A DNA stretch of 64,000 bases from NCBI GenBank assembly GCA_015494395.1, contig WGBG01000167.1, positions 1 to 64,000 of the forward strand, read 5' to 3'. This DNA comes from Deltaproteobacteria bacterium. GTDB lineage: Bacteria > Desulfobacterota > Dissulfuribacteria > Dissulfuribacterales > QOAL01. Numbering within the stretch: the first letter of the stretch is position 1; each line of letters opens with the position of its first letter. The translations under genes were made by a program, and so were the position numbers. Positions 6,027 to 31,286 of this stretch are shown piece by piece. The notes beneath the pieces were generated by a model. That model searched no databases and was not told the origin of the DNA. It saw nothing but the letters and a program-made list of their open reading frames with translations.

Positions 6027-8647
6027 TTTTTCTGTTCCATCTTTACCGTTCTGTAACCAATATCATCGCGGTACATCAAACGGTAATGTTCATGTAACGG
6101 CGCATCCTGATAAGCCTTTATCATTCCATCTTTTTCCACAATGGCAAGCCGTAAAAGGGCTTCTTCCATTGCGGGGTTGCCCAGGTATAGGCAATTTTCC
6201 AGATGCAGTTTTCTCAAAACATCCATGGAAAGAGGTAAGGGTGCTTCGTGAGTTCTAACATTAACCACCTGGGCCATCAGTACAGCACTGATCTCTTTCC
6301 ATTGGGTCCTGTTAAGAACGGATTTATCCCAGGGGATTGTTACTTGTGAATGATTCAGGAGTGTTATTGAAGTCTCGCGGGTTTCTGGATTCATCCGGAT
6401 ATTGCTAACCATAAGAACTTCACAATGTGGTTCCTGGCCATATCGTGTCTGTGCCTTTGCTTCAGGCAACGTCTTGCCGCTTCTTGATAACGTAATTCTA
6501 GCCAGCTGCCTCAAGGCTCTGCGGCCAATACGATGAGAAGTGCCGTTTTCAAGTTCATAGAGCCACTGCTCCATCTTGCCCTTTTCTTTACGTTTTGCAT
6601 ATGTCCAATCCATAATCTGGCGTATTTCACTAGGAAGATTGATGTGTCTCAACTTACTCCACACTTCCAGACTACGGCACAATATGTATGGATCATAAAC
6701 AAAGGCGGTGGGACCAAATTCTTTAAGAGGCTTCTCCACTGCTCTGTCAAGTTCAGGCGCAAGGATCATTACAGACGGTTCAGCACTTTGCGCCCGTGGC
6801 GTATCAGCATGTCTCCATACACGCCCTATTCGTTGCAGCAACATATCTGAGGGGCAAAAACGGGTCACAAGAAAATCGGCGTCAATATCCAGTGATTGTT
6901 CAAGCACCTGAGTCCCTACCAAGATACGTCCCTGAATCCCACGCAGCTGCCATCCTTCACGGCCATAAAGCGAAACCCAATGCTGTTCGATGTTTCTGCG
7001 GTGTTCCATAATAAACCTGGAATGGAGAAGACCACATTCAATATTGAGTTCTGCACACCGGGCAGCAATATCAAGATATCTCTCCTGGGCTTCGGATACT
7101 GTATTTTCTATCCACAGTACCTGTTCACCCAGGCATGCACGGTCAAGCACCTCTGTTACTGCAGTTTGATCATTTTCTTCAATGGTTACGTAAAATTGTC
7201 GATGTGCATTTGTGGGTATAGCCGCGGGTATTTCAAGGGTTCGCCCATTCTTGTGTTGTGCGGTTATCAGCGGGAATGCATTTTGTTCAAGCTCTGCTGC
7301 TATTAAGTCAGTTCGACGTTCACGAGTAAGGGTGGCGCTAAGTATAAAAACAGTGGTATTTAATTTGGTGAGCAGTGCTATTAATGCGTCTATGATTATG
7401 CCGGTATACGCATCGTATGAATGTACTTCATCGAGGATTACCACCTTTCCTGCCAGGCCAAATGCCCGCACAAAGCCGTGTTTAACATTCATGGCTGCCA
7501 TAAGAGCCTGATCCAGGGTTCCAACAGCAAAAGGTGCGAGAAGGCCGCGTTTTCGAGTATTGAACCATGAACTACCAGGTCCGCCATCGGCACCAAGTTC
7601 GGTAGCCTTCAGCCATGCCCTGCCATGCAGTAGCAATATATTATTGCCAGGGCTGTCAGTCTCTAAAATGCGAGCCAGAAATTTTTTGAATCTGACATAT
7701 ATGCGGTTGGAAGTAAGCTGGGTAGGTAGAGCAAAATAGATACCGTGGGCAAAACCGTTGCTGATAAGCTGATATGCTGCGAAAAGCGCTGCCTCTGTCT
7801 TGCCCATTCCCATAGGTGCTTCAAGCACGTAAACACCCGGGGTGTTGGCAGCCTCTATGAACTGTTGCTGAACAGGATAGGGAACATATTCTTTCCCGAA
7901 TACGTCTGAAAAACTGAGGCCTTGCCTTACCCTGACAGGTAGAAAACCTGCCATGTCAACCGCCCTGGAGATAACATCCTTCCAGGGAGACTCCGGGTCG
8001 TCAAACAGCTCGCCAGAGCCTATCCAGTCTGCTACAGATGTCAGACCGGCAAGGAGTCTGGCATTTTCGGGACCGTCGACATCAGGCCAGTCAGAATTAA
8101 ATGTTGAGCGCAGCTCAGTCAGCAAACGGATTCTTTCCTTCTGCCAGGCAGGCCCTCCAAAGACTTCATGGTCTGCCCTGTAAAGCTGCACAGGTGGGCT
8201 GTAGCCATGATGTTGGCCCACTATTTCAGGAATAAATTTACCAGCTCCTGCTGCATCAAGGGTAAGCTGGCTGACACCGGCATGCCCACCCCAGTTCTTT
8301 TCAAGAGATGGATTGGCATCAACCAGCCACGGATAGTCAGCAGGTCGATAATCAGAGGTGTTGGCAAGGATTTTTTTCTGAAAGGTTGGACATATCTTGC
8401 CAGTATCATGTGCTGCTGCAACCAGTGCCGCTGATTCAGGGGGGTCCAGGCAGGAAAGGAGACATGGAATGCGTCTGATTAATTCGCGCGCCACCTCGCC
8501 TACAATTTGACAGTGGCTCAAAACGGTTCTTCCACATTCTGTTTTGTGATCTGCCTGGTATGTTTTGGCGTAGTAGGGACCACGGGGAATATGAGCTGCA
8601 CTATTCCCGTTAGTTGTCTGCCGTTTTGGGGTTTGAGGGCCTATCAT
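6023..8647 (-). CDS. cas3: Cas3 HD nuclease / SF2 helicase (I-E)
   Basis: 874 aa. N-terminal HD region (SHCQIVGEV...AAAHDTGK), Walker A LEAPMGMGKTEAAL, DEAH-like VILDEVH. First gene of the operon. Confidence 0.93.
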   Translation of the reverse strand: MIGPQTPKRQTTNGNSAAHIPRGPYYAKTYQADHKTECGRTVLSHCQIVGEVARELIRRIPCLLSCLDPPESAALVAAAHDTGKICPTFQKKILANTSDYRPADYPWLVDANPSLEKNWGGHAGVSQLTLDAAGAGKFIPEIVGQHHGYSPPVQLYRADHEVFGGPAWQKERIRLLTELRSTFNSDWPDVDGPENARLLAGLTSVADWIGSGELFDDPESPWKDVISRAVDMAGFLPVRVRQGLSFSDVFGKEYVPYPVQQQFIEAANTPGVYVLEAPMGMGKTEAALFAAYQLISNGFAHGIYFALPTQLTSNRIYVRFKKFLARILETDSPGNNILLLHGRAWLKATELGADGGPGSSWFNTRKRGLLAPFAVGTLDQALMAAMNVKHGFVRAFGLAGKVVILDEVHSYDAYTGIIIDALIALLTKLNTTVFILSATLTRERRTDLIAAELEQNAFPLITAQHKNGRTLEIPAAIPTNAHRQFYVTIEENDQTAVTEVLDRACLGEQVLWIENTVSEAQERYLDIAARCAELNIECGLLHSRFIMEHRRNIEQHWVSLYGREGWQLRGIQGRILVGTQVLEQSLDIDADFLVTRFCPSDMLLQRIGRVWRHADTPRAQSAEPSVMILAPELDRAVEKPLKEFGPTAFVYDPYILCRSLEVWSKLRHINLPSEIRQIMDWTYAKRKEKGKMEQWLYELENGTSHRIGRRALRQLARITLSRSGKTLPEAKAQTRYGQEPHCEVLMVSNIRMNPETRETSITLLNHSQVTIPWDKSVLNRTQWKEISAVLMAQVVNVRTHEAPLPLSMDVLRKLHLENCLYLGNPAMEEALLRLAIVEKDGMIKAYQDAPLHEHYRLMYRDDIGYRTVKMEQKK

Positions 8648-13693: not shown

Positions 13694-14617
13694 TTATTCC
13701 ATGCCGCTTGCTGAAACGCCGCACAGCCTCTCCATAATCTCCGCTGCCTCGGGATGTATCAAACCCGCCATTGCCGCAAGGGCTTTAACGAAAGTTACAG
13801 GAGACGGGCTGCAAATAATATCAGGGTTTACCGTATGAACCCTGCCTGCCTTTACTGCCTTCATCTGCCTGAAGCGCATCCATCGTTTACGTTCCCGGGC
13901 GGCAATCCCGGTTTCCGTACCCATAATTGCAATGATGATTACATCAGGGTCCATGGCAAGTACCTTCTCAAGGCTGGCATGACCGGTAAGCTGGTCTGCG
14001 ACTATGTTTTTTCCACCTCCAAGCCTTATGTAATCATCAGTAAATGAGTCATTCACAGAGGCAAAAAGCGGATTTGCCCCAACCTGAAGAAACACGCTCT
14101 GTCTGGAAAAACCGGAGCATGCATCGCTGATGCACTGGACCTTGCGTCTTACCTGTTTAACTATTGTCCGGGCCTCCTTGCCGCATCCCAGAAGCTCGCC
14201 CAGCCGTAACAGGTGGCTGCACAGGGCGTTAAATGAATCAGGTTTTTCAAACCTCACCACCCTTAAGCCCAGGCGCTTTAGTCCATACAGATCCCGTGGC
14301 TGTGTCAATCCGGTGGCAAGCACAATATCCGGCTTAAGCGCCACGATCTTCTCGAGGTTGATCTCCATGAGCGTACCCACCTTTTCCCGATTACGGGCCT
14401 CAGGGGGGCGCACGCAGTAAATGGTGTCCCCAACAAGCCGGCCTCCTGCGCCAAGGAGAAATACATTTTCCGTATTCAGTGGGCCAAGGGAAACAATGCG
14501 GTGCGGGTAGTCTGAAGAAGATGCGCTGGCCGGGACAGAGAGGAAAATGGCGGCAGCAATGAGGAAAACTGCCACCACTCCAGGGATGTTATGTACCACC
14601 CTGATCAGTAATCCCAC
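13694..14617 (-). CDS. Periplasmic substrate-binding protein, BtuF/FecB (cobalamin/siderophore) class
   Basis: 307 aa with a signal peptide (VVAVFLIAAAIFLSVPASA). RIVSLGPLNTENVFLLG...LKPDIVLA is typical of class III binding proteins. GTG start at 14617. Confidence 0.8.
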   Translation of the reverse strand: MGLLIRVVHNIPGVVAVFLIAAAIFLSVPASASSSDYPHRIVSLGPLNTENVFLLGAGGRLVGDTIYCVRPPEARNREKVGTLMEINLEKIVALKPDIVLATGLTQPRDLYGLKRLGLRVVRFEKPDSFNALCSHLLRLGELLGCGKEARTIVKQVRRKVQCISDACSGFSRQSVFLQVGANPLFASVNDSFTDDYIRLGGGKNIVADQLTGHASLEKVLAMDPDVIIIAIMGTETGIAARERKRWMRFRQMKAVKAGRVHTVNPDIICSPSPVTFVKALAAMAGLIHPEAAEIMERLCGVSASGME

Positions 14618-15146: not shown

Positions 15147-16019
15147 TCAATAATATTTCATAAGCTCCAGTACGCGTTCCAGCCGTTCCGCAAACATGTC
15201 ACTGACCTCAGGATACCAGCAAAGGCCCCTGTAGCACTTCTTGACGTGGCACTCCTGGCCGTGATGCTCAACAACAGGTATGTCAACCTGGCCGAAACCC
15301 ATCTCTTCAAGCCTTTTCCTCCAGCTATCCTCCTCTCCCATAAGGTCATCCATCACATGCAGCCCGGCTGTAAACATCACAGGGATTATACGCACTCCGG
15401 CACCTGACTCGCCCTGATGCTTCCTTGAAAGCATGGCAAACAGCGCGTCTGCATCGGGCACGCCCTCAACAGAGGCGGCATAAACGTTAGGGTAGAGGCC
15501 ACGGACCATCTGTTCAAGCCCAAGGTAAAGGGTATTTACAGGTTCGGCAGCAAGCGGAGAGCCGTGAAGCGCAAGGATGTTTATTCCCTGCTGATCCGGG
15601 AGGAACTCCGGTTCAATTATGGTGAGTACCTGCTTTACGAACTGCCAGCGGTGCATGAGTGTTTCGCCGACTATAATCCTAAGGCCGGGGAAAGATGCGC
15701 AGGTCTCAACAAGCTGTGTGTACTCGGTGCCAGGGAATATATGAAGCGGCTGGACCACTGCCTTTCTGTATCCCCTGCTCTCGAGACTGGAGAGTATCTC
15801 CCTTAGCCCTGGAAGATTCATCTTCCTCCTGATTATATCAGAGGTGTATGCCAGGAAGAGCTCGTATTCACTGAACCGCTCCTGCAGGCGCTGGTTGAAT
15901 TTTTCAATGCCCGCACCTGCCCTGGTGCTGGTTCCAAAGGCTGCAATGACTATTGCCGGTCTTTCTTCAAGGCTGGGCAGCCGCATTTTTCGCCCAATGT
16001 ATCCGAACTTGTCTATCAT
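15147..16019 (-). CDS. cbiK: Sirohydrochlorin cobaltochelatase CbiK-type (class II anaerobic chelatase)
   Basis: 290 aa. PAIVIAAFGTS...IEKF, LHIFPGTEY and a second His-containing half (LALHGSP, IPVMFTAGLHV) fit the CbiK/CbiX fold pattern. No evident signal peptide. Confidence 0.8.
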   Translation of the reverse strand: MIDKFGYIGRKMRLPSLEERPAIVIAAFGTSTRAGAGIEKFNQRLQERFSEYELFLAYTSDIIRRKMNLPGLREILSSLESRGYRKAVVQPLHIFPGTEYTQLVETCASFPGLRIIVGETLMHRWQFVKQVLTIIEPEFLPDQQGINILALHGSPLAAEPVNTLYLGLEQMVRGLYPNVYAASVEGVPDADALFAMLSRKHQGESGAGVRIIPVMFTAGLHVMDDLMGEEDSWRKRLEEMGFGQVDIPVVEHHGQECHVKKCYRGLCWYPEVSDMFAERLERVLELMKYY

Positions 16020-16091
16020 GGTTGATTCACCAGAAAATTCCGTATCTATTTAGCATCCTAAATGGTCCTGTTCTGGAGTGACTCCGCCTCA

Positions 16092-19000
16092 CTACACCTT
16101 CCGTGACATGCCGTAACCCGCAGCGCACACAAGGAGAAGCACAAACAAACCCGCAAGCCAGTCAACACCGGATGATGACATCTTGGCGTCATCCTGCTGC
16201 TCCTGCTCTATCTTTTCCATGCGGTATCCTTCAACTTCTCTTGATTCAACAGCCTTTTTACTGCTGATATCCTGCTGTTTTGTACCCCTGCCCTGCGCCT
16301 TTGGCACATCAGCGGTCCTGGCAGCGTCCCGGCCAGGGGCCTTTGCACTCCGGGCGCTCTGCCTTCCGGCGCTGGAAAGCTCTTCAAGCAGTCTCTTCCT
16401 GTCAAGCACCTGGTCTTCAAGGCTCTTTTTTGCCGCCTGTTCAACAGCCACCCTGAATTTTTCCGCTATTTCCGGAGACAACACGCCCGGCAGGGATATA
16501 AGGGCAGCTACCATCTGGTTCAGCATGGGATTATTGCAGGTATGGTCACAGCACGCCACCCCGTTTTCAACCACGTTTACCGCATACTGTGCTGCCAGCC
16601 GTTGTTTTATCCTGTCGTCAGCCTTCCAGTATCCCTTGCGTATCGCCTCCAGCATTCGGGCCGTTATTGACTGATATGCCCAGGGACTGGCACGCCTGAA
16701 GAAGTCATCCGTCTTGAGCCCGTACTTATCCTCCACGTAAACCTGGTACGATTCGTTCCACTTTGCCTGGTCCACCTTGTCAGGCGTGGTCACCTGCCAT
16801 CCCCAGAGGTACTCAAAGTAGTGGGCCATCTCCCTTGCCCCTGCATAATCTTCCTCCTGCATCGCCTTTATCCACTGGGGATTGAGATACCTGCTCCTGA
16901 TCTCGCGGCCAAGGGTCTTGGCCATGTCTTCCACCTTTACCTGTCCGGGTTTCTGCTGCTGCGTGACAAGAGTTTCCGGCGTATACCCGCTTTCATACCT
17001 GATTGCCATTGCAAGGCCGCCCAGGTACTGAAACATGTCATCGTTATCCAGCAGGCCGTAAACATTGGAGGAGCGTGAATGGAGAGCCACCTCAACGCCT
17101 GCAAGGTTCTCCCGCAGAAGTCCCCTTGCAGGAACTCCCCACCTGCCCTGACCAAATGCGTACCCAACACGGTTTTCGTAAACACCCACCACCTTGGCCT
17201 CATCCTCCCAGAGGCCCGAAGCCCCGGTCATTTCAGAGACACCTGTGCCATAAGCCCCGGGTTTTTCCGAAAATATGCGAAGCCTGCTCAGGGCCTCGGC
17301 CTCTTTTTCATCCAACCCCTTCCGGATCAGGCTGGCCCTGATCCGCCGGGTATTTAGCGCAATGAGATTTTCAATGTCGGTCTGTTTCATGGCAAGTTGC
17401 AGGGCCTGGTCGAGATATTCCAGCTTGTCAGGAAAAAGGTCGCGGTAGAGTCCGGAGGCATTGATCATTACGTCTATTCTGGGCCTTCCAAGCCTTGCCC
17501 CTGGTATTACCTCAAGGCCATCCACCCTTCCGGACGGAGACCACCTTGGCCTGACACCCATCAGGCTCAGTATTGTACATTCATTAACCCCCTCATTTCT
17601 CATGGTCTCTGTTGCCCACAGCACCACTGCCACCTTTGCCGGGTACCTGCCATGCTTCTTCACATAATCATCCACCATCTGGTCCGCTGCCCTGGCGCCA
17701 AGTTTCCATGCGGCAGCAGTGGGTATCCTGGAGGGATTAAAGCCATAAAAGTTGCGGCCAGTGGGTATTGCTCCGGGATTTCTCACAGGATCGTTTCCCT
17801 GTCCAGGCTCCACATACAGGCCGTTGAACCCTGCCAGCAGGGAATTAATCTCCGCAGGGCCCGAGGCCATCAGGCCATCTGTAATCCGTTTCCTGCTCTC
17901 CCCCGGGTTCCTTTTTACTATTGCTCCCGCCATCTCACTGGCATCATCCAGATCAGGACTCTTCCCGAAGGTGTGCAGCCCATCCGGCCTGAGATTTTCA
18001 TTTATCTCCTCCAGGTAGTGGCCAAGCACCCTTACTGCCTCATCATCTGCATTACCCACGCCCCTGTCAGGAAGCTCAGAGGCAATATCCGCCAGTATGC
18101 CGGTTTTCGTGGCAAGTTCCATAAGTTCCCTGAATTTTTCAGGGGCGGTAATGCTGGCCCTGGCCCGTGCACGCTCATACTCATCAACCAGCTCTGCCAT
18201 GCGGGCATACTCCTGGTAAAGCTCCACATCCTTGAGCATGGGCGTGAGGTGGGAAACAATAACCGCCCTGCCGCGCCTCTTTGCCTGTATCCCTTCACCC
18301 ACATCATCCACAATGTATGGATAGATATTTGGTATGTCTCCAATAAGCACCTCAGGGGGACATGAAGGTGAAAGCCCGGCCTGTTTTCCAGGATTCCATT
18401 CGTATGTGGCATGGGTGCCCAGGTGAACCATGACATCGGCCCTGAACTCCTTCTGGAGCCACAGGTAGGCGGCCAGGTACTGGTGATGGGGATATATGGA
18501 CGGGTCGTGATAGAGCTTCATGGGATCGTCTAACCAGCCCCTTGAAGGTTCCGGAAGAAGTACGCAGTTACCGCATAAAACCGCAGGGACAATAATATCA
18601 TTGCCGTCCCTCATTATGAACTGCTCCTCAGGCTCTCCCCACTGTTTTACAACTTCTTTCCTGAATGCCCGGGGAAGGGTGGCAAACCACTTCCGGTATG
18701 TGGAGACTGGTATCCTCACCACGTCAGGAGAACGCATGAGTTTCTCAAGTTCGCCCGGCGCCCATGAACCCACGTTTCTTGCAGAACTCAGGATAAGCTC
18801 CTTTATCTTTTGCCCTGACGGCAGCATGCCAACGTCATATCCCTGCCTGGAAAGGGCCTGCATTATGCTGGCAAGGCTTTCAAACACGTTCAGGTAGCTT
18901 GCCCCCACGTTCTGCTTTCCCTGGCTGTGGTTGTAGAACATCAGGGCAACGCGCCGGTTTTCAGGCGGTTTTTTGCCAAGCGCTATCCATTTGTGAAGCC

Positions 19001-20060
19001 TGGGTATGAGGTGGTCGAGGTTTTCATCAATGGTGACATTCAGGAAATATTCGCTGCCGCTCCGGCTGTCTGTCACTTCCTTTTTCCCTGAAAGTGGCGT
19101 TGGCTCAACAAGACCTGATATCTCCGGAGTGGCAATTGCCCAGGCGACTTCGCTTCCTGCGATACCAACCGGGCTTTTTCTCCACTCATCAACCGTGCCG
19201 TTAAATATGCTTATGGCATTAATAACTGGCACTCCCAGAGCATTCAGTTTTTTGGAAAGCTCAGGGGGCAGGGCAGAGTAGAACTTGAAGGTAAAGGCAA
19301 GGACCAGATCAACCCCTGGCCTTCCGGCGCTGTCAATTAGAAATCTCTCCAGCGTCTCCCTGTCACGCCCGAAACAGGGAATCACGTTAAATCCCTCATC
19401 TTCAAGCCTCTTTACTATCTTTTCAAGGGGTGCATCCTGCCCCGGCGTCATGAAGGAGGAGAAGAAGAGAAGGCCCACAAAGGGAGAATCCCTGTTGAAG
19501 CCAGGCCTTGATTCCAGCCAGGCCATGTATCTGTTAATATCCTGAAATACCCGTCCGGCCGCAGGATGAAATATGCCGGTTTGCGGCATCTTTACCACCG
19601 GGTCGTACTTTATCCCCTTGTCAAAATGACGATGGGCAACCAGCCTTAGCATGTTCCGTATGTTTTTCCTGCCGAGATTCGCATAGTATTCCGAGACCTC
19701 AGGGTCAAACAGGAAGCCCAGCTGTTCAAGCCTCTGGTCATCGGTTGAGCCCCTCAGGGCGTAAACCGTCTTGTCCAACGGGTTTACCGTGTTTTCAACA
19801 AATTCCTCAAGGCTGCTGCCCATTACATCAACCACGATGACCCGTGCTTTTTTGATCGCCTTTGAACACTGGTCCCTGCGCCTTTTTATGTCATTTGCAG
19901 AAATTACCTGCACCGTCACGCCCTGCATATCAAGGCCCTGCACGCTCCCCTGGACAAGAAAGGAGTTGTTGTCAATGACCAGCAGGGCAATATCCGCTCC
20001 GAAGGCTGCGGAAAACAGGCAGGGGAACAGCACTGCAAGTATGGCAACGGTCCTTTTCAC
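16092..20060 (-). CDS. CobN/Mg-chelatase-H family protein with N-terminal signal peptide and C-terminal membrane anchor
   Basis: 1322 aa with CobN-family similarity throughout (e.g. YLNVFESL, GTHATYEWNPGK, VLWATETMRNEG, INASGLYRD). N-terminus MKRTVAILAVLFPCLFSAAFGAD. C-terminus WLAGLFVLLLVCAAGYGMSRKV after a charged low-complexity linker. Confidence 0.88.
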   Translation of the reverse strand: MKRTVAILAVLFPCLFSAAFGADIALLVIDNNSFLVQGSVQGLDMQGVTVQVISANDIKRRRDQCSKAIKKARVIVVDVMGSSLEEFVENTVNPLDKTVYALRGSTDDQRLEQLGFLFDPEVSEYYANLGRKNIRNMLRLVAHRHFDKGIKYDPVVKMPQTGIFHPAAGRVFQDINRYMAWLESRPGFNRDSPFVGLLFFSSFMTPGQDAPLEKIVKRLEDEGFNVIPCFGRDRETLERFLIDSAGRPGVDLVLAFTFKFYSALPPELSKKLNALGVPVINAISIFNGTVDEWRKSPVGIAGSEVAWAIATPEISGLVEPTPLSGKKEVTDSRSGSEYFLNVTIDENLDHLIPRLHKWIALGKKPPENRRVALMFYNHSQGKQNVGASYLNVFESLASIMQALSRQGYDVGMLPSGQKIKELILSSARNVGSWAPGELEKLMRSPDVVRIPVSTYRKWFATLPRAFRKEVVKQWGEPEEQFIMRDGNDIIVPAVLCGNCVLLPEPSRGWLDDPMKLYHDPSIYPHHQYLAAYLWLQKEFRADVMVHLGTHATYEWNPGKQAGLSPSCPPEVLIGDIPNIYPYIVDDVGEGIQAKRRGRAVIVSHLTPMLKDVELYQEYARMAELVDEYERARARASITAPEKFRELMELATKTGILADIASELPDRGVGNADDEAVRVLGHYLEEINENLRPDGLHTFGKSPDLDDASEMAGAIVKRNPGESRKRITDGLMASGPAEINSLLAGFNGLYVEPGQGNDPVRNPGAIPTGRNFYGFNPSRIPTAAAWKLGARAADQMVDDYVKKHGRYPAKVAVVLWATETMRNEGVNECTILSLMGVRPRWSPSGRVDGLEVIPGARLGRPRIDVMINASGLYRDLFPDKLEYLDQALQLAMKQTDIENLIALNTRRIRASLIRKGLDEKEAEALSRLRIFSEKPGAYGTGVSEMTGASGLWEDEAKVVGVYENRVGYAFGQGRWGVPARGLLRENLAGVEVALHSRSSNVYGLLDNDDMFQYLGGLAMAIRYESGYTPETLVTQQQKPGQVKVEDMAKTLGREIRSRYLNPQWIKAMQEEDYAGAREMAHYFEYLWGWQVTTPDKVDQAKWNESYQVYVEDKYGLKTDDFFRRASPWAYQSITARMLEAIRKGYWKADDRIKQRLAAQYAVNVVENGVACCDHTCNNPMLNQMVAALISLPGVLSPEIAEKFRVAVEQAAKKSLEDQVLDRKRLLEELSSAGRQSARSAKAPGRDAARTADVPKAQGRGTKQQDISSKKAVESREVEGYRMEKIEQEQQDDAKMSSSGVDWLAGLFVLLLVCAAGYGMSRKV

Positions 20061-22165
20061 TGCTGCTCTCCCTGCTTAACCGGACTGGTAATGGCTGACA
20101 CCGGGACTGTGTACCCCTTATGCTCCATCCGATACATTGCCCCTGCCATAATGGCAGAGAGACCAGAGGCCACAAGCGGTGGCAACCCGCTTAAAAAAGG
20201 GATATTCAAACTCCGGAAGCCGCTCCCCTTTCCGCTGGCGATACGCTTATATACCGCATGCGACCATGTACTCATTGAAGCAATGTCACATACAAGGCCG
20301 CGCTGGAACGCATCGCCTGCAGCCATCAGGGCTTCCAGGTACCCGGCATAGAACGGATCAAGGAGCAGGCTTTCAACCTCCTGGAAAAGCACTGTGCCCT
20401 CATCCCTGTCTCCTGCCGCCTCCATACAGGCCTGCCACAGGTCAATCTTCCGTTCCCGGAGACGCTGGAACACATTGCGGTTTCCGGTAAAACCGTTCTG
20501 CATGTGGACAGCCTCCTGAACTCCCTGATAAACCGCGCGGGCTATTAGGGTGCCAAGGCGGGAATGACCGCCGGACGAATCAACGCGCGGACCGCCCCCC
20601 TGAACCACAATAATATTATCTGTGCCGGTGCCTGTGGCCTGGTTTTCAAGCGGGGTGTAGCTTGAGCGTATGTCAAGGTCCTGCAAGGCTGCGCTCTTTG
20701 CCTCGGTTGCGGTTATAATGGCCCTGGTCATGGCCCTTTCGGTAAGTTTGAGGTTTGTAAGAATAAGTATGTTTATTGTGCCGGGCTTGCTGCCGGAATG
20801 CCCGGACTGTGATCCTGCCCCGGCAAGCTCATAGAATTTGCCAGTATCCGCTGACATTCGAACCGCATTGCTGGATACCCCTGCGGTAACCAGGGCCACC
20901 ACCTGCATTTCCTTGAATCTGCGGGTTGTTACAGCCAGATTATCCATGTTCGCGCCTGTAAACAGCAGGGAGGTTGAGGCAGGATCAAGCCCAAGCACGC
21001 GCATGGTATCGCGCCGCAGGGCGTCAAGACCCTGTCTGTGGCCAAGTCCCCAGGCAGGAGGGGGAAAGTAGTTGTTGCCTATGACACTTATGTTTTCACG
21101 CATCCCCTCCAGGGTTGAAACAACCTTCATGGGGCGGCTCAAGTGCACCACCACGGCCTTGTTCCTGAAATCCTTGATGTCAGCAGAGACCACCTCGGCC
21201 TTCTTTACGCACGGAAGCCCTGCAGACAACTCCTTTCTGCCAACAACCTGCTCTGGCAGTACAAAATTTTCAGGGTTTGAAAATTCATCCCTGTAGAGGC
21301 GCGAGGAGAGCCATGCCACGAAATAGCCGGTATGGGCAGCTGCCCTGCATGTAAGCTCGCAGGGAAAGAAATATATCCGGTTGTTTTTTACCGCATCCAC
21401 ATTCTTCCAGCCCGGCCTGTGCAGCAGCCTGAGGATGGCCCGGTCGCCCCCGCACCCATATAGCACCTGGGGATTGAACTCCTGCCACTCCTCAAGCGAC
21501 ACCGGCACCACAGCCCCCTTTTCGCCCAGGTCCGGAGCAATGCCACCGGCAGCCTCCACGTACTCTTTCTGGAAGGAATCATCCCCCGGCGTCATGACTT
21601 GCCCCCGTCCCATGAGTCTCATGACCCGCACCCTTTTTTCCCTGGGAATCAGCGCGGTTTTGCGTCTTATGAGGTCAAGGAGCCGCTTCTGTTCTGCAAC
21701 AACCTCACCTGCCCTTGCCTGGCATCCGAATATCCTTCCCAGCAGGTTGATGTGCCTGAAGCTGTCCCCTATTGACCGTGGAGAAAGATTAACCAGTACA
21801 CAGCGGCCCCTGAACTGGCTCACCACCTCTCTTTGCAGGTCGGTATAAAAGATAAGATCAGGGTTGATGCCCGCGATTTTCTCCGTATCAGGATAAAAAA
21901 ATCCGCCTGTAATCACCTTGTCTGCCGCCTGTGGAGGCAGAATCGAGTGGTATGTAATTCCGACCACGGCATCTCCGGCCCCTATTGTCAGAAGAATCTC
22001 GGTAACACCCGGAACCAGTGAGACCACCCGTCTTGGCTGGCGCTCAAGGCAGATGGTCTTTCCTGCCGAATCCGTGAATGTCAATGGAAATGCCCCAAGA
22101 GCAAAAGATGGGATAAACAAGAACAACAGCGATACCACTGCCACAAAATGATTTGTTTTTTTCAT
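20057..22165 (-). CDS. Fusion protein: BtuF-like periplasmic binding domain + CbiZ-like adenosylcobinamide amidohydrolase domain
   Basis: Start taken at MKKTNHFVAVVSLLFLFIPSFALGA (signal peptide). About aa 30-300 look like a class III binding protein (RRVVSLVPGVTEILL...INPDLIF). The C-terminal half has GTINILILTN...ITATEAKSAALQDLDI...ATGTGTDNIIVV, typical of CbiZ. ATGA overlap with the CobN-like gene. Confidence 0.75.
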   Translation of the reverse strand: MKKTNHFVAVVSLLFLFIPSFALGAFPLTFTDSAGKTICLERQPRRVVSLVPGVTEILLTIGAGDAVVGITYHSILPPQAADKVITGGFFYPDTEKIAGINPDLIFYTDLQREVVSQFRGRCVLVNLSPRSIGDSFRHINLLGRIFGCQARAGEVVAEQKRLLDLIRRKTALIPREKRVRVMRLMGRGQVMTPGDDSFQKEYVEAAGGIAPDLGEKGAVVPVSLEEWQEFNPQVLYGCGGDRAILRLLHRPGWKNVDAVKNNRIYFFPCELTCRAAAHTGYFVAWLSSRLYRDEFSNPENFVLPEQVVGRKELSAGLPCVKKAEVVSADIKDFRNKAVVVHLSRPMKVVSTLEGMRENISVIGNNYFPPPAWGLGHRQGLDALRRDTMRVLGLDPASTSLLFTGANMDNLAVTTRRFKEMQVVALVTAGVSSNAVRMSADTGKFYELAGAGSQSGHSGSKPGTINILILTNLKLTERAMTRAIITATEAKSAALQDLDIRSSYTPLENQATGTGTDNIIVVQGGGPRVDSSGGHSRLGTLIARAVYQGVQEAVHMQNGFTGNRNVFQRLRERKIDLWQACMEAAGDRDEGTVLFQEVESLLLDPFYAGYLEALMAAGDAFQRGLVCDIASMSTWSHAVYKRIASGKGSGFRSLNIPFLSGLPPLVASGLSAIMAGAMYRMEHKGYTVPVSAITSPVKQGEQQ

Positions 22166-22254
22166 ACCTAAGTTCCTAACTTCTCCTGGCTTCTCAATAA
22201 GCCCGCACAAAGATGCCTGTATCTGCTTACAGGAGGCCGCAGATACCTCAGGTC

Positions 22255-22590
22255 CTATTCCGGCACGTACACCATGGTGCCGTCTCCAAGGCGGTAGGCA
22301 GTTCCAAGCCTCTGGCCCCTGCCACTGGTTTTGGCCCTGGAGACACGCATGGCCTCTATCTTCCTGCCTTTTTTTACTATAATTTCCATGTCTCCTTCCC
22401 CTGTCTGCCTGGTAATTGTCACGGTGGAGTCCTCTTTTAAAAGGTCCTCCAGGTGATACGTGGCAAAGAGGACAAGGAGCAGCCCTACGATAAAGACAAG
22501 CCCGATATCAAAGAGATTGGCCAGGCCGGTCATGGGATCATTATCGGAAAATCCGGTGCCCCGGTCCTGTTTACGCCTGAGATATTTCAT
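22255..22590 (-). CDS. Small bitopic membrane protein (DUF2149-like by recollection; ExbD-like topology)
   Basis: 111 aa. DPMTGLANLFDIGLVFIVGLLLVLF is a single TM segment followed by a soluble domain. ATGA overlap with the upstream MotA/ExbB gene. Confidence 0.65.
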   Translation of the reverse strand: MKYLRRKQDRGTGFSDNDPMTGLANLFDIGLVFIVGLLLVLFATYHLEDLLKEDSTVTITRQTGEGDMEIIVKKGRKIEAMRVSRAKTSGRGQRLGTAYRLGDGTMVYVPE

Positions 22591-23180
22591 TCATCCTGCC
22601 TCCCGTGTCCATGCTCAATTATCTCAGCCACAAGCTCCATGTTCTTTATGTCCTCTTCAATCCATCTGCGCCGGACAGTGAAAAAACAGTAAGCTGCAAG
22701 GCCAAGCGCCATTCCGACCACAGTTGTGGTAAAAGCTATGACAAGGTCTCCGGAGAGCCTGCTTATGTCACCCTGGCCAAGAGAGGCCAGCCCTGTACCC
22801 ATGGGTATCAGCGTACCTATGAGACCCAGGCCCGGTCCTATACGGATCAGCATTTTAAGCCCGTCCAGGGACTTCCACATGCGGTGTTCCATCTCCCGCA
22901 ACAGGTTCAGTACCGCGATTTCCCTGTGGTCATCATGGGCGATAGCAAGGAGTTTGTCTGCAAAGGCCCGGACATCGGCGGGAAATGCCGAAAATCCCTT
23001 CTCGGATGCAGTGGCCAGCGGGTCTGGTTTGAGCCGCCGCCTCGAAAGCCACATGCTGAAAAAATGCCCGCTGTACACAACTGTCCATAACGTAAGCAGG
23101 CACAGCAGGAGCAGCACAGGAAAAAGTAGAGATGAAGAAACCAGGTAAATAAACGATTTAAGAAATGCCGTCAGTTCCAT
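22587..23180 (-). CDS. MotA/TolQ/ExbB-family proton-channel protein
   Basis: 197 aa. IGPGLGLIGTLIPMGTGLASLG...LVIAFTTTVVGMALGLAAYCFF matches the ExbB/TolQ signature region. Confidence 0.8.
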   Translation of the reverse strand: MELTAFLKSFIYLVSSSLLFPVLLLLCLLTLWTVVYSGHFFSMWLSRRRLKPDPLATASEKGFSAFPADVRAFADKLLAIAHDDHREIAVLNLLREMEHRMWKSLDGLKMLIRIGPGLGLIGTLIPMGTGLASLGQGDISRLSGDLVIAFTTTVVGMALGLAAYCFFTVRRRWIEEDIKNMELVAEIIEHGHGRQDE

Positions 23181-23938
23181 TCCACTTTCTCCCTTGCTCT
23201 GCGGTTCTGCCGCTCCATGATTATCCCGATGCCAAAGGCCGCCGCTGCCCCGGCAACCAGCCAGGCAAGCTGATCTGCCCCAGGGCCACTGACAACACCA
23301 CCCTTGCTCAACCTGTAAATCCTCTTTGCATCATCAAAATGGGGAACAATGGCAATGGTCAGAAGAAAGTAGAGAGACAGCATTATCATGACAGTGCCGA
23401 GGCGGCGTTCCGCCCCGGCCCCATTGTTGAAAAACGCAAAAAATGCAGCGGATGCCAGCCCCATCACCACGAAAAGCACTGAGAGCAGAGGGAAAAGCAG
23501 GGCTGGTCCGGGCGAAAGTTTATCCAGCAGTGCGCCTGATAAAAAGATCACCGCAAGGCAGCCCGGGCATGGCGCAACCAGCGCCATCCATGCCCTGGTT
23601 TTTCCTGCTCCACTGCCATCCTTACAACGGTTGGGGAAGAGCAGGGCAGCACCCCAGGCAAACAGGATGGCCACCATGATAAAATGGAAGGCCATTATTC
23701 CCCTGAAGATAGAATCCAGGCTTTCAAGCCATGCAAGGGGATTAAACTTCTTAATTCCAAGCCATGCCACTGCAAATACCAGCAGGTAGAGCACAGCCCA
23801 GGCCAACGCCACACCGGCCTTCTGCAGCACGGTTTTTCTGCTGGAGAGCAGGTACGAAAGCCCTGCTCCGCTCTTTGCCGCAAATACTCCAAATGAAAAC
23901 AGCAATCCCAGTATCAGTGTTTTTGTTTCCATGATCAA
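23171..23938 (-). CDS. Polytopic inner-membrane protein (DUF2162-like predicted transporter by recollection)
   Basis: 255 aa with about 7 hydrophobic segments and a PCPGC motif. Overlaps both neighbours (4 nt and 10 nt). Confidence 0.65.
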   Translation of the reverse strand: MIMETKTLILGLLFSFGVFAAKSGAGLSYLLSSRKTVLQKAGVALAWAVLYLLVFAVAWLGIKKFNPLAWLESLDSIFRGIMAFHFIMVAILFAWGAALLFPNRCKDGSGAGKTRAWMALVAPCPGCLAVIFLSGALLDKLSPGPALLFPLLSVLFVVMGLASAAFFAFFNNGAGAERRLGTVMIMLSLYFLLTIAIVPHFDDAKRIYRLSKGGVVSGPGADQLAWLVAGAAAAFGIGIIMERQNRRAREKVEWN

Positions 23939-26040
23939 AACTCGAAACGGTAACTGAGATATGCGGCTATGCCCGGTTTTGGAAAGCCCTTTTTCTCGTA
24001 ATAGTACTTATCAAACAGGTTATCCACCCGGAGCATTACCCGGTGGTGATCCAGGAATGTAGCCCCCATCACCAGGTCGGCCACTGTAAAGCACGGGTAA
24101 CAGATAACCGGGTATCCGACCGCATTCCAGTCATAATCCTTCATGGTGCCCTGGCTTCTGAAATGGAGCCTTGCGTCGAACATTCCATCGTCGTACATGA
24201 GACCGTAGTTCACGGTGTATGTCGCCACATTGTGTATGTCTTCCCAGTTATCCCTGCTGTTCTCCTCCTCGGCACGTATCATCCAGGTGGCATTTGTAAA
24301 AAGGCTTATTGACCGGTTCCAGTCCAGGTACTTCCCAAAGTCCCACTGCAGCTCCCACTCCATGCCATCCATCCTTGCGCTGAGGCTGTTCTCGTAGGTG
24401 GTGACATTTCCGTTTTTCAGCCTGGTTATCTTGTCATCAACCTCGGTGTGGAAATAGGTCATGTCGAAATTCAGGGCCAGAGCCGGATTTTCATACCCGA
24501 GGCCAAAATCAAATGTAAGTGAGGTTTCAGGGTCCAGATCAGGATTTCCCTTTGTGATCATGGTAACTCCGCCTACCACCCTTTCGGAGTAGCCGGCGAG
24601 CTGCGCTGCGGCAGGAGGGACAAAGGCCTGTCCCAGGGTAGTATGCACGCGCAAACCGTTATCGAACAGGTAATTTACGCCTCCCCTTGGGCTGAACTGG
24701 GAGAAATCGTCTGAACCAGGGATGAAATCCGTTTTGTACGGCGTCTTTCTGGTCTCAACATCAAAGGTGTCGTAGCGTCCGCCTGCAGTTACTGTCAGCC
24801 GCTCATCCATGAAGCGCCAGATGGTTTCTACATAGCCCGCCCAGTTTTCCCTGCTCTCATCGGGGGAATAGGGTGCCTTGCGGCTGCCGTCCAGATTATA
24901 GCTCCTGCTTGTCCGGTCAATATCCTGCCAGTCAAAACCCGCTACTATACGGTGTATCCCCCAGTCATACTGGTTCTTCACCTGAACCCCGGTCCAGTAG
25001 ATGTCATAGTCATAACTGCGGTACGGGCTTACCTCCACTGGAGAGGACCAGCCATAGTAGCGCTTGTAATATTCCGATGATTCTCCGGTGTGGTAGGCTG
25101 TGATATCCAGGCGGTAGTCACGGGTAACCTGGCCGCCAAGCCGGAAGTCAACCCCGTAACGGTCAATATCCTTGTATCCGCTCCTGGCATCTCCATCAAA
25201 GGTGTCGCCTGGCGTTTCAATGTCCCTGCCCTGGTAACCATCAACTGTCAGATCCGTGCGCCAGTGGCTTCCTATGTCCATTCCGAGATGGAAGGAACCG
25301 TCACGTGTAATAAAACCCGTGTGTTTCCTCTCTTCACCATTGCCCATCTCGATATCACCGGCCTGTTCGTACCGCCTTGCTGCAATATCAAGGTCCAGAT
25401 TTTTCCATATCCTTCCCCCAATACCTCCTTTCTGAAAGTTGGTGCGGAAAGATCCGAAACCTGCCTCGGCCCTTCCGGCAAGTGTGCCGGTATTCCTGCG
25501 GGTGATCACGTTGATCACGCCCCCCATTGCCTCGCCGCCGTAAAGTGATGAGGCAGGCCCTTTGAGCACTTCAATACGCTCAATATTGTCTGACGTTATG
25601 GTGGCAAGGTTGGTTGCGCCAGCAGGCCTGCCATTAATCAGGATCAGTGAATGTTTGGTGATCCCGGAAAATTCAGGTCTGAAGCCCCTTATTCCGATAC
25701 CTGCCAGGGCACCCGGGTATTCAATTACCCCGATTGATGAATTTTTCTTGAGCTGTTCGGTTATGGTCTCACCTGAGGTAAGCTCAATTTCCTGACGGTC
25801 AATTACCTCAACCTTGGCAGGAATTTCCCGAATTTCCTCAGGGCTCCTGGTGGCAGTGACAACCATCTCTTCCAGTTGCTCTACCTTGGCAGACTCAGAG
25901 GCAGATTCAGAATAGGGCCGACCATCTTCTGACGCAGACGCATGGACAGGATTCAGAATGAACAGTAAGGCAAAAACAGCAAGGCAGGTGCGGCTGCACC
26001 CGCGTTTCAGAAGGGAAAGACTGGATGGGTGATGTGACAT
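23935..26040 (-). CDS. TonB-dependent outer-membrane receptor (BtuB-like, riboswitch-controlled)
   Basis: 701 aa. Signal peptide, plug start EEMVVTATR, GGVINVITR, and the C-terminal barrel motif DNLFDKYYYEKKGFPKPG...YRFEF. AAGGAGG RBS. Confidence 0.9.
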   Translation of the reverse strand: MSHHPSSLSLLKRGCSRTCLAVFALLFILNPVHASASEDGRPYSESASESAKVEQLEEMVVTATRSPEEIREIPAKVEVIDRQEIELTSGETITEQLKKNSSIGVIEYPGALAGIGIRGFRPEFSGITKHSLILINGRPAGATNLATITSDNIERIEVLKGPASSLYGGEAMGGVINVITRRNTGTLAGRAEAGFGSFRTNFQKGGIGGRIWKNLDLDIAARRYEQAGDIEMGNGEERKHTGFITRDGSFHLGMDIGSHWRTDLTVDGYQGRDIETPGDTFDGDARSGYKDIDRYGVDFRLGGQVTRDYRLDITAYHTGESSEYYKRYYGWSSPVEVSPYRSYDYDIYWTGVQVKNQYDWGIHRIVAGFDWQDIDRTSRSYNLDGSRKAPYSPDESRENWAGYVETIWRFMDERLTVTAGGRYDTFDVETRKTPYKTDFIPGSDDFSQFSPRGGVNYLFDNGLRVHTTLGQAFVPPAAAQLAGYSERVVGGVTMITKGNPDLDPETSLTFDFGLGYENPALALNFDMTYFHTEVDDKITRLKNGNVTTYENSLSARMDGMEWELQWDFGKYLDWNRSISLFTNATWMIRAEEENSRDNWEDIHNVATYTVNYGLMYDDGMFDARLHFRSQGTMKDYDWNAVGYPVICYPCFTVADLVMGATFLDHHRVMLRVDNLFDKYYYEKKGFPKPGIAAYLSYRFEF

Positions 26041-30384: not shown

Positions 30385-30591
30385 CTAAAACGGCTTTTTA
30401 CAAGCAGCATAATCCACGATTCTGACGGGCTGAATCCTAATGAGGGATTCCTTGCCCGTCTTGGGGGGATACTTCAAAAGTAGTACACAGGCCATCTCCA
30501 TCGCAAAGTGCATAACCGTAACCTTTACTACAAGGCAGAGAGAAAGGGCCGGACTGTACAGTTTCCGGGCGATGAACTGGGAGGAAAACAT
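30385..30591 (-). CDS. Hypothetical small protein (third gene of the XRE operon?)
   Basis: 68-aa ORF whose ATG lies 1 nt after the TAA of the upstream gene (TAATATG). No recognisable motifs. Confidence 0.3.
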   Translation of the reverse strand: MFSSQFIARKLYSPALSLCLVVKVTVMHFAMEMACVLLLKYPPKTGKESLIRIQPVRIVDYAACKKPF

Positions 30592-30592
30592 A

Positions 30593-30895
30593 TTATCTGT
30601 CTTGTGTTACGACTTTAAGATGTACCTTCCTGCTTCTTGGAAATTCTCTTTTAATCAGTGTTTTTATGGCCTTTTTCAGTTGTTTTTCTTCAATTTCGAA
30701 CTCTCGCTGTTCAAATCCCCTCTCTTCTATTTGAAGCCTTGTGTCATCAATGCGCCTTATGCTCACATGTCTGTCCTTCTTATACGTGAGGATTTTTATG
30801 CCGGATCCAGGTTCACTTTTATTAATGCGCTGTACAGTGGTGATGATTACAGAAGAGATATCAATCACTTTCTTTTTCCTTTTCGCTATGTGCAT
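30593..30895 (-). CDS. Hypothetical basic protein
   Basis: Start taken at MHIAKRKKKVID. 100 aa, Lys/Arg/Glu-rich, no recognised domain. Overlaps the 3' end of the regulator gene. Confidence 0.45.
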   Translation of the reverse strand: MHIAKRKKKVIDISSVIITTVQRINKSEPGSGIKILTYKKDRHVSIRRIDDTRLQIEERGFEQREFEIEEKQLKKAIKTLIKREFPRSRKVHLKVVTQDR

Positions 30896-31286
30896 CCTGG
30901 TATTCAAGCAGTTCGGCAATGGGCCGAAATGCCTCGCACCCTCGGCAGATAGAGAGTTTTTCAACAGGTGAATCGGTTCTGCACTGGTTGCAGAATGTTC
31001 CACTTATAAACCAGCACATGTGTCCAAGGTCAAATTCCATGGCGGGGCATTTGGCCCTGATTTTTTCATTGCAATGTTTAACCTCCCAGCACGCCTTGAT
31101 TTTACTGGCAATATTTTTTCTGCGTGAAATCAGGAAGTATATTTGGCGTTCCACATAAATGGGAATATTACGGTATCCCTGTTCATAGCTGGATATGGTT
31201 TTTTTTGAAGTTCCAAGTAGTTCTGCCATCTGTTTCTGTGTTCTTTTTAAAATTTTTCTAGCAAATGTAAATTCTTTGTTCGTCAT
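30861..31286 (-). CDS. XRE-family HTH regulator fused to a Cys-rich domain with two CW dipeptides
   Basis: 141 aa. The N-terminus RKILKRTQKQMAELLGTSKKTISSYEQG is an XRE HTH. The C-terminus CWEVKHCNEKIRAKCPAMEFDLGHMCWFISGTFCNQCRTDSPVEKLSICRGC carries 8 Cys. Confidence 0.8.
   Translation of the reverse strand: MTNKEFTFARKILKRTQKQMAELLGTSKKTISSYEQGYRNIPIYVERQIYFLISRRKNIASKIKACWEVKHCNEKIRAKCPAMEFDLGHMCWFISGTFCNQCRTDSPVEKLSICRGCEAFRPIAELLEYQDAHSEKEKESD

Follow-up and report, generated by a model that had tools for sequence, protein, structure and literature searches.

HmuS of Bacteroides thetaiotaomicron converts haem to protoporphyrin IX without ATP, and its structure (9D26) has N- and C-terminal helices (Nath et al., EMBO J 2025, PMC12583661). 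In HmuS, His538 is essential for haem turnover, and the purified soluble protein stalls at 1-2 turnovers (PMC12583661). In an E. coli model, HmuS of Porphyromonas gingivalis was localised to the inner membrane, and its topology was examined by proteinase K digestion (PMC13227078). As recounted in PMC6460266, the proposal of 'BtuS' as a CobN relative of a third type, for metalloporphyrin salvage, goes back to Rodionov et al. (2003); Rocha et al. (2018) then predicted that B. fragilis BtuS1 and BtuS2 are exported and membrane-attached and tied them to periplasmic haem-iron use (PMC6460266). SEED carries the label 'CobN-like chelatase BtuS for metalloporphyrine salvage' (PMC10846266), and Wagner et al. 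(2012) noted, on plasmid pSZ77 of Geobacter (Trichlorobacter) lovleyi, a cobN with TonB-gene flanks and a 'distinct function, exact biochemical role unknown' (PMC3403914). The idea of a periplasmic CobN-like protein that works without an ATPase is already known at class level (BtuS 2003, the 2018 prediction, HmuS 2025). Here we analyzed a CobN-like gene at positions 16092..20060 of a stretch of 64,000 nucleotides (the window) from a Deltaproteobacteria bacterium (assembly GCA_015494395.1, contig WGBG01000167.1). We propose, at what we judge to be even chances, that its product is the periplasmic subunit of an Hmu-like machine for acquisition, repressed through a cobalamin riboswitch, and carries out ATP-independent corrinoid processing, probably cobalt release, possibly driven by the proton-motive force.

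An earlier note, made from the letters of this DNA, had described the open reading frame at 16092-20060 as a 1322-residue CobN homologue. Frame and homology are both real, and the strand is here corrected to minus; the plus-strand frame across 16092..20060 is rich in stop codons. The gene and the features of its product are as follows.

16092..20060, minus strand: CobN-like gene, 1322 amino acids; GTG start at 20060, stop codon at 16092-16094
19998..20060, minus strand: Sec-type signal peptide, residues 1-21 (MKRTVAILAVLFPCLFSAAFG, followed by AD)
18411..18413, minus strand: His550 of the superfamily-wide HxGTH motif, placed by alignment to 9d26; invariant in the clade
17037..17048, minus strand: DNDD, residues 1005-1008, in the place of HmuS LSLDH (His1209); resembles DSDD of CobN
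16536..16553, minus strand: CCDHTC Cys/His motif, residues 1170-1175, in the C-terminal extension
16173..16448, minus strand: charged low-complexity linker, residues 1205-1296 (92 residues, 39% K/R/E/D)
16110..16172, minus strand: C-terminal transmembrane helix, residues 1297-1317, then the basic tail SRKV

The GTG start shares bases with the TGA of the upstream gene (GTGA), and a Shine-Dalgarno-like box, GGGAG, lies about 7 nucleotides 5' of it. Independent gene callers predicted an identical 1322-residue product from near-identical metagenome contigs. Pfam CobN-Mg_chel (PF02514) matched the body of the protein in two stretches (E=0, 1080 bits), and the sequence matches in PDB were nearly equal for HmuS (9d26, 5.9e-142), CobN (1.4e-139) and ChlH (6.8e-125). 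All NCBIfam CobN/BchH equivalog models scored below their cut-offs (985.6 vs 1619, 900.4 vs 1248, 682.6 vs 822, others lower). The superfamily motif HxG(T/A)H(G/A) of domain III is present as HLGTHAT, with His550, and is invariant in 23 clade members; D1005, N1006, D1007 and D1008 are likewise invariant across the clade. The closest records are metagenome contigs, the best match among GTDB species genomes reached 62%, and the homologues are named 'cobaltochelatase subunit CobN' in the databases.

Topology was judged from hydropathy, the positive-inside rule, conservation and natural fusions, with 120 database proteins of 50-96% identity, mostly from metagenomic Desulfobacterota, as the homologue set. 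Just two hydrophobic segments were found in the 1322 residues, at 4-22 and 1297-1315. The N-terminal segment recurs in 108 of the 120 homologues and the C-terminal helix, followed by basic residues, in 116, the exceptions being truncated records or fusions. When the window protein was included, 111 of 121 sequences began with a classical n-h-c signal peptide (median 22 residues), and position -1 was A, G or S in 100 of these 111. The mature N-terminus that follows is conserved as A(D/E)hxLLVhDNNSYL, and in the linker V(E/K)G(Y/F)xM, likewise a conserved motif, precedes SSGxEW by exactly 19 residues. Three natural fusions join Peripla_BP_2, CbiZ and CobN in a single polypeptide (P0094, of 2024 residues, at locus L083; one at L030; an open reading frame of L058), and in the P0094 and L058 fusions the stretch that leads from Peripla_BP_2 to CobN holds no hydrophobic segment. 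Because the fused Peripla_BP_2 domain is obligately extracytoplasmic, this arrangement puts the CobN body on the periplasmic side without recourse to any predictor. Taken together, these features showed a protein predicted to be exported by Sec, to lose a signal peptide of about 21 residues and to stay anchored in the inner membrane through a single helix at the C-terminus, behind a long charged linker. The signal peptide and the charged linker with its single helix, both claimed in the earlier note, recur in about 110 of 120 orthologues. The note had also allowed for a true start downstream of the hydrophobic segment; the Shine-Dalgarno-like box, the GTGA coupling and the conserved N-terminus favour a start upstream of it. 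Separately, two longer database proteins, P0118 (1926 residues) and P0115 (1508 residues), join a CobN-like sequence to a TonB-dependent receptor (Plug and barrel) or an Slp lipoprotein domain; these joins may be either genuine fusions or artefacts of gene calling.

No ChlI-, ChlD-, CobS- or CobT-like gene was found among the sizeable open reading frames of the 64-kb window, in agreement with what had been noted before, and cobS and cobT are absent from the complete genome of G. lovleyi SZ, host of a 41.5%-identical cluster (PMC3403914). The cytoplasmic CobNs of Haloferax and Deinococcus have a VWA (ChlD-like) neighbour gene and neither a signal peptide nor a transmembrane segment. The argument that a periplasmic CobN-like protein would be barred from the cytoplasmic AAA+ mechanism fits the export evidence and the ATP-independence of HmuS (PMC12583661). 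The suggested role in binding, handing over or de-metallating tetrapyrroles is compatible with the evidence and with the published HmuS and BtuS work, de-metallation in this clade being drawn by analogy.

The CobN-like gene is the sixth of eight in a minus-strand operon with a cobalamin riboswitch in its leader. The other features of the operon, in the direction of transcription, are listed here; the HmuR, HmuT, HmuU and HmuV equivalences are taken from PMC13227078 and PMC11681262.

26159..26365, minus strand: cobalamin riboswitch aptamer (RF00174), operon leader; Rfam 95.2 bits, E 2e-22, full-length model
23935..26040, minus strand: TonB-dependent outer-membrane receptor, 701 amino acids, signal peptide, HmuR/BtuB-like; Pfam Plug and TonB_dep_Rec_b-barrel
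23171..23938, minus strand: DUF2162 polytopic membrane protein, about 7 hydrophobic segments by hydropathy, HmuT-like; PF09930, 7.7e-31
22587..23180, minus strand: MotA/TolQ/ExbB-family proton-channel protein, 197 amino acids, HmuU-like; PF01618, 1.7e-12
22255..22590, minus strand: DUF2149 protein, 111 amino acids, one transmembrane helix and a small beta domain, HmuV-like; PF09919, 9e-30
20057..22165, minus strand: exported Peripla_BP_2 and CbiZ fusion (CbiZ being the adenosylcobinamide amidohydrolase family); CbiZ 3.2e-53, Peripla_BP_2 9.2e-21
15147..16019, minus strand: CbiK-type (class II) cobaltochelatase, 290 amino acids; Pfam CbiK 1.1e-34
13694..14617, minus strand: BtuF-like periplasmic binding protein, 307 amino acids, signal peptide, last gene of the cluster; Peripla_BP_2 5.6e-27

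The best NCBIfam matches of the receptor were TonB-hemin (240 bits) and TonB-B12 (153 bits), and the BtuF-like protein scored 108 bits against NCBIfam BtuF; all three are below cut-off. The binding protein-CbiZ fusion probably starts at MKKTNHF..., which gives it a signal peptide with a hydrophobic segment at residues 7-25. CbiK has neither a signal peptide nor a hydrophobic segment, and its orthologues 3' of other CobN-like genes also lack a signal peptide, suggesting that CbiK is cytoplasmic. It is this context, absent from the earlier note, that we regard as decisive: the riboswitch, the TonB-dependent receptor, the exported CbiZ fusion, the cytoplasmic CbiK and the module of MotA-like protein and DUF2149, with DUF2162. 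The operon (16000-26000) has a G+C content of 52-55%, and most of the DNA around it is lower (at 1-12 kb and at 30-36 kb, 41-47%); the excess may reflect horizontal acquisition, and the homologous G. lovleyi cluster is plasmid-borne.

CbiZ-family enzymes cut the aminopropanol/nucleotide arm off cobinamide and cobamides to give cobyric acid, and this product resembles the ligand of CobN. On our proposal, low B12 would relieve the riboswitch and the TonB-dependent receptor would bring corrinoids into the periplasm. There the exported CbiZ fusion would capture the corrinoid and cleave off its arm, leaving a cobyric-acid-like corrinoid whose lower axial face is free and would suit a CobN-type pocket. 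The CobN-like body would then act on the trimmed corrinoid without ATP, most likely by releasing cobalt, by analogy with the way HmuS frees the iron of haem. The freed metal would pass the inner membrane, for which DUF2162 is the candidate permease, and the cytoplasmic CbiK encoded next door would put it into sirohydrochlorin. The MotA/ExbB-like channel and DUF2149 would couple proton flow to the CobN-like protein through its conserved C-terminal anchor and so replace the AAA+ motor.

The layout of this operon recurs across Desulfobacterota. A scan of GTDB species genomes returned 487 relatives, and the counts given here come from the best 80 loci together with that of Desulfobacula toluolica (81 loci, mostly from Desulfobacterota/Thermodesulfobacteriota), in which many of the missing genes reflect contigs that are cut off. 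The MotA-like and DUF2149 genes were within the cluster in 69 of 81 loci, the binding protein-CbiZ fusion, which is the usual neighbour 5' of the CobN-like gene, in 54, the TonB-dependent receptor in 46 and CbiK in 26. The Rfam cobalamin riboswitch was found in all six assessable loci that were tested; a covariance model built from those riboswitches gave 83 matches in the 81 loci, and of the 58 loci that could be assessed, 41 had one directly 5' of the cluster. Tandem or multiple cobalamin riboswitches occur at L085 (5218-5684, two before the G. lovleyi receptor), L051, L075, L020 and L007, with at most 3 or 4 elsewhere per 24-kb locus. CbiK paralogues with a signal peptide and a His-rich N-terminus (e.g. 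HAHAHGDGHGHSHGHQEH) were seen at L016 5101-6060, L041 374-1312, L043 2475-3521 and L068 251-1258; they adjoin receptor genes, some after a riboswitch of their own, and are reminiscent of the periplasmic CbiK(P) of Desulfovibrio. An apparent fusion of DUF2149 to the binding protein-CbiZ gene at L050 proved to be an artefact of a masked run of N.

More distant loci vary the same theme. On plasmid pRUNSL01 of Runella slithyformis (L086, 4977-13011), a TonB-dependent receptor, a nickel permease, MotA, DUF2149 and an exported CobN-like protein are encoded between hypABF and hypCDE with a [NiFe] hydrogenase. The permease stands in the position of DUF2162 and is NicO/UreH-like, with a HAFEADH motif and Pfam matches below threshold; no riboswitch was found in the module, which is a sister system in a nickel context. 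Another relative, in a 7.4-Mb genome, has two cobW (COG0523) genes 5' of the CobN-like gene. The CbiK, Runella nickel and cobW contexts suggest that the metal ion is the product delivered to the cell, namely iron for HmuS, cobalt here and nickel in Runella. On plasmid p4 of Azospirillum brasilense (L087, 2602-7333), MotA-like and DUF2149 genes come after the gene for an exported CobN-like protein whose His motif resembles that of HmuS (LSTDHPFEYLGG); this locus has no TonB-dependent receptor, DUF2162, CxxxxC motif or upstream riboswitch, and it may be a system of the haem/iron type outside Bacteroidota. In Methanosarcina sp. MTP4 (L091, 1-20896) at least five CobN-like genes of 1485-1756 residues stand in tandem, one with CarboxypepD_reg/SdrD_B-type domains, beside a small 124-residue DUF2162 gene; the SEED name there is 'CobN-like chelatase BtuS'.

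We also examined the MotA-like, DUF2149 and DUF2162 proteins. The MotA-like protein matched the canonical ExbB of the same loci in hhalign (probability 96.3%, E 1.6e-9) and has the conserved motifs GLIGTLIPMGTGLA and AFTTTVVG. The transmembrane helix of DUF2149 has an invariant Asp28 in the motif ANLFDxGLVFIVGL, and an AlphaFold2 model (predicted local distance difference test score 73) shows a helix at 19-46 and 5 strands. This arrangement resembles ExbB-ExbD-TonB, TolQ-TolR and MotA-MotB in that an ExbB homologue is followed immediately 3' by a gene for a small, N-in, single-helix protein with an invariant acidic residue, and the anchor of the CobN-like protein with its long charged spacer gives a mirror-image likeness to TonB. 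It differs from the ExbBD-TonB stators in that DUF2149 has no profile or fold similarity to ExbD or TolR and that no TonB-like C-terminal domain is present. The pair flanks exported CobN-likes in Desulfobacterota, Bacteroidota and Alpha- and Gammaproteobacteria, and the DUF2149 stop often overlaps the CobN-like start. In PMC12583661 HmuU/V are drawn as energiser of the TonB-dependent receptor. We disfavour a role of the pair as a mere receptor energiser, because 23 of 84 related loci, including those of G. lovleyi, D. marinum and Dissulfuribacter thermophilus, have a separate canonical ExbB-ExbD-TonB set, often directly 3', and because the pair is retained without a nearby receptor (Azospirillum and L094). 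In 63 orthologues of DUF2162 the PCPxC motif, H85 and W95 are at least 95% conserved. The PCPxC motif (residues 122-127) is embedded in the membrane and brings to mind the CPC metal sites in P-type ATPases as well as the Cys pairs in CcdA/DsbD; metal or reducing equivalents might pass by way of it. At L016 (8368-9624, a Desulfobacteraceae metagenome-assembled genome) DUF2162 and the MotA-like protein form one uninterrupted open reading frame of 419 residues; this single case looks real, and as a possible natural fusion it hints at a physical association of the two.

A module of MotA/ExbB-like protein and DUF2149, with DUF2162, is a plausible energy source other than ATP. The distribution of the pair, the presence of canonical ExbBD-TonB sets besides it, the VWA-linked cytoplasmic CobNs and the stalling of HmuS allow, and do not prove, the hypothesis that a proton-driven unit stands in place of the AAA+ motor. 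A more specific form of this idea, which we offer as a speculation unlikely to be right in full, is that exported CobN-likes are class I (de)chelatases driven by the proton-motive force, in which a stator of MotA/ExbB-like protein and DUF2149 grips the V(E/K)G(Y/F)xM...SSGxEW-transmembrane anchor and performs the mechanical work for which cytoplasmic chelatases use AAA+ ChlI/ChlD or CobS/CobT, and that the B12 clade strips cobalt from corrinoids trimmed by periplasmic CbiZ.

The closest characterised protein is HmuS, and the likeness is extensive. Both belong to the CobN/ChlH fold family and have an N-terminal signal or anchor, a periplasmic body (predicted here), no AAA+ partner (none in the window, for the protein studied here), a C-terminal extension with CxxxxC, a linker and a transmembrane helix. 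The His of HxGTH is kept (His550 corresponds to HmuS His538), and homologues of the partners HmuR (TonB-dependent receptor), HmuT (DUF2162), HmuU (MotA/ExbB) and HmuV (DUF2149) are encoded in the same operon. However, identity over the body is about 34%, and, of the features by which Nath et al. define HmuS (PMC12583661), the Met-rich domain IV insertion of about 120 residues is lacking: aligned blocks are about 26 residues apart (699 to 725), versus about 240 in HmuS (682 to 922), and no 40-residue window anywhere in the CobN-like protein holds more than 3 Met. The HmuS motif LSLDHxxEFMGG, which is strictly conserved and whose His1209 is the second axial/acid residue, is replaced by LLDNDDMFQYLGG, with the Asp in DNDD, a match to the DSDD of cobaltochelatase CobNs of solved structure. 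HmuS His254 of the HGR motif, a head/neck haem ligand as is Met79, aligns to Tyr261 (KFY, with K259 and F260 invariant), with no His nearby, in a gapped stretch of low confidence. An invariant D78-V79-M80 lies near the position of HmuS Met79, and alignment of the head domain returned ChlH alone and nothing to the HmuS N-terminus. Control also differs, by a cobalamin riboswitch as against an iron/haem context, as do the partners, an exported binding protein-CbiZ fusion and CbiK with no HmuY hemophore; the window clade is found in Desulfobacterota and HmuS in Bacteroidota.

Neighbour-joining trees, crude distance trees from about 400 aligned columns and without support values, grouped all exported forms (the window clade, G. 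lovleyi, the Runella clade, Azospirillum, Pseudoalteromonas, Methanosarcina 'BtuS', Rhodopirellula and HmuS) and set them apart from cytoplasmic CobN and ChlH-like proteins. On this sequence evidence the CobN-like protein is a member of an ancient exported CobN-like clade that includes HmuS. Exported forms share the C-terminal extension with CxxxxC, linker and transmembrane helix, and cytoplasmic CobN and ChlH end before it; the CxxxxC motif is missing only in Azospirillum and Pseudoalteromonas. We rejected the idea that this motif tracks the permease gene, since P0133, P0141 and P0158 have the motif without a permease neighbour. Within the exported group, HmuS and Azospirillum (STDH) have a His-type active site, and the window clade, G. 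lovleyi, the Runella clade, Pseudoalteromonas and archaea have an Asp-type site. The His of A. thaliana ChlH at the second motif was not generalised, because the cyanobacterial 'ChlH' sequences that were retrieved are ChlH-like paralogues with TDIQE at this place.

Several points weigh against cobalt release and the drive proposed for it. Corrin-bound cobalt is kinetically very inert and no enzyme is known to remove it, so a cobalt dechelatase would be unprecedented. Characterised CbiZ enzymes act on adenosylated substrates in the cytoplasm, and the activity of the exported CbiZ domain is predicted. CbiZ is a salvage/remodelling enzyme, lacking in 27 of 81 loci, and once a corrinoid can be imported it is cheaper to salvage the ring than to strip it. 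In B. fragilis the iron derived from haem enters through FeoAB (PMC6460266). As for the module, DUF2149 was rejected as an ExbD homologue (hhalign probability 0.5%; best Foldseek match of the AlphaFold2 model in PDB, E 0.28), homology between DUF2162 and the Runella NicO/UreH-like nickel permease was likewise rejected (hhalign probability below 1%), which leaves an analogy of position, and no MotA or DUF2149 gene lies within 8 kb of the Methanosarcina CobN-like arrays. We infer dechelation by the clade from sequence and from the analogy with HmuS. The extreme inertness of cobalt in corrins also keeps serious a rival in which no metal is removed and the CobN-like protein is a high-affinity periplasmic acceptor or chaperone, which presents the corrinoid to the CbiZ fusion and passes the intact cobalt-corrinoid to an inner-membrane importer, either DUF2162/MotA/DUF2149 or a BtuCD encoded elsewhere and fed by the BtuF-like protein. 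Cytoplasmic CobN binds its corrinoid substrate tightly, the operon encodes CbiZ and two BtuF-type binding proteins under riboswitch control as in btuB operons, and the authors of the P. gingivalis study propose that HmuS may hand haem to HmuTUV (PMC13227078). Yet the invariant catalytic-site His and DNDD suggest chemistry at a metal site and not binding alone, the Runella nickel and cobW contexts indicate a free metal product, the adjacency of CbiK is less natural for ring salvage, and a chelatase scaffold of 1300 residues is large for a chaperone. We consider intact salvage possible, if somewhat doubtful.

Other explanations seem far less probable than either cobalt release or intact salvage. 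That the protein is an HmuS orthologue, a periplasmic haem dechelatase that harvests iron, would agree with HmuS 9d26 as the top match in PDB, the common topology and the neighbours of HmuR/T/U/V type, and the receptor scores highest against TonB-hemin, though below cut-off. We rejected this orthology on the lack of the Met-rich insertion and of the His254 (aligned to Tyr here, at low confidence) and His1209 (DNDD here) motifs and regard it as very improbable: the CobN match is practically equal in score, regulation is by cobalamin and not by iron, CbiZ and CbiK are partners, and HmuS is a distant branch within the exported clade. Little credence, likewise, is due to a periplasmic chelatase that works forwards, in which cobalt or some other metal is inserted into a corrinoid or tetrapyrrole imported without a metal or with the wrong one, and the proton-motive force supplies the energy by way of MotA/DUF2149. 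The CobN-type DNDD, the adjacent proton-channel pair and B12 regulation would suit it, but the organism's own route uses CbiK, and metal-free corrinoids are not expected in anoxic habitats dominated by the route of early cobalt insertion. Moreover, the sole characterised exported relative removes metal (PMC12583661). The name 'cobaltochelatase subunit CobN' and a partner search confined to the 64-kb window could still be taken to mean that the true start lies downstream and that the product is an ordinary cytoplasmic CobN with CobS/T or ChlI/D elsewhere in the genome. This we find scarcely credible: the next Met is residue 45, within a conserved domain, about 110 orthologues retain both the signal peptide and the mature N-terminus, the C-terminal helix is conserved too, and the coupled start, the binding-protein fusions, the sub-cut-off equivalog scores and the lack of cobS and cobT in G. 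lovleyi (PMC3403914) all speak against it.

Elsewhere in the window, a complete type I-E CRISPR-Cas set lies on the minus strand at 669-8647 (Cas3 at 6023-8647, Cse1, Cse2, Cas7/CT1975, Cas5, a Cas6e-like protein and Cas1); Tandem Repeats Finder returned nothing in the window, and no CRISPR repeat array. On the plus strand at 36033-51258, three giant secreted or surface proteins are encoded in a row: one of 1520 residues with PKD/FG-GAP/FlgD-Ig domains, an RHS-repeat protein of 1264 residues (DUF6531 and 17 RHS repeats) and one of 1932 residues with MAM/Reelin-subrepeat/fn3 domains. No Pfam match was found for the open reading frames at 28083-29900 (minus, 605 residues), 30440-30952 (plus, 170 residues) and 52472-53662 (plus, 396 residues).

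Exported CobN-likes are widespread, with the 487 relatives of this clade in GTDB and sister clades in Bacteroidota, Proteobacteria, Planctomycetes and methanogens, and the haem-specific HmuS is the only one characterised. Nearly all go under the wrong name of 'cobaltochelatase subunit CobN', and B12 synthesis of the aerobic type is in consequence predicted too often for anaerobes. The clade offers a genetic handle in its riboswitch, its CbiZ fusion, its CobN-type motif and its cultured hosts (G. lovleyi, Desulfobacula toluolica, Desulfogranum marinum and Desulfonema magnum). It makes accessible the questions of periplasmic corrinoid processing or de-metallation, of the role of DUF2162/MotA/DUF2149 (HmuTUV) and of a proton motor that could replace AAA+ ATPases, all with a bearing on the cobalt and B12 economy of sulfidic sediments. 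If cobalt release is true, biology would have its first case of corrin de-metallation, environmental corrinoids would be a cobalt source in sulfidic habitats, and the nickel (Runella clade) and iron (HmuS) forms would be sister systems.

Compared with the biosynthetic enzymes CobN (of CobNST; 9UK9, 7C6O) and ChlH/BchH (4ZHJ), the window protein has the same Pfam family over the full body and the HxGTH motif, and with CobN it shares a second motif of DxDD type. CobN and ChlH/BchH are cytoplasmic and soluble, end about 150 residues earlier and need AAA+/VWA partners and ATP, whereas the window protein carries a signal peptide, is extended and anchored at its C-terminus, has no such partners in the window and scores below cut-off in NCBIfam. 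Closer to it is Glov_3671 of G. lovleyi pSZ77 (41.5% identity), which shares the signal peptide and transmembrane helix, DNDD and CCDHTC. The gene order TonB-dependent receptor, DUF2162, MotA, DUF2149, CobN-like is also the same, with tandem cobalamin riboswitches in front in G. lovleyi. Unlike the window operon, the Glov_3671 cluster has neither a CbiZ-binding protein fusion nor CbiK, and a canonical ExbB-ExbD-TonB set and a second receptor follow directly. Judged by its sequence, the window protein falls within the BtuS class: it is a CobN relative distinct from biosynthetic CobN and ChlH in the neighbour-joining trees, predicted to be exported and membrane-attached, with a predicted role in salvage. 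The locus in the window, like most of its relatives, combines a riboswitch with a TonB-dependent receptor, which is in line with the TonB-dependent uptake under B12-element control with which BtuS is associated (Rodionov et al. 2003, as recounted in PMC6460266). The BtuS family is defined by comparative genomics only, with BtuS2 being HmuS and acting on haem, and no characterised member has the combination of DNDD, riboswitch and CbiZ fusion. The clade is thus an uncharacterised variant of HmuS/BtuS, set apart by riboswitch control, the DNDD site, coupling to an exported CbiZ and the MotA/DUF2149/DUF2162 module.

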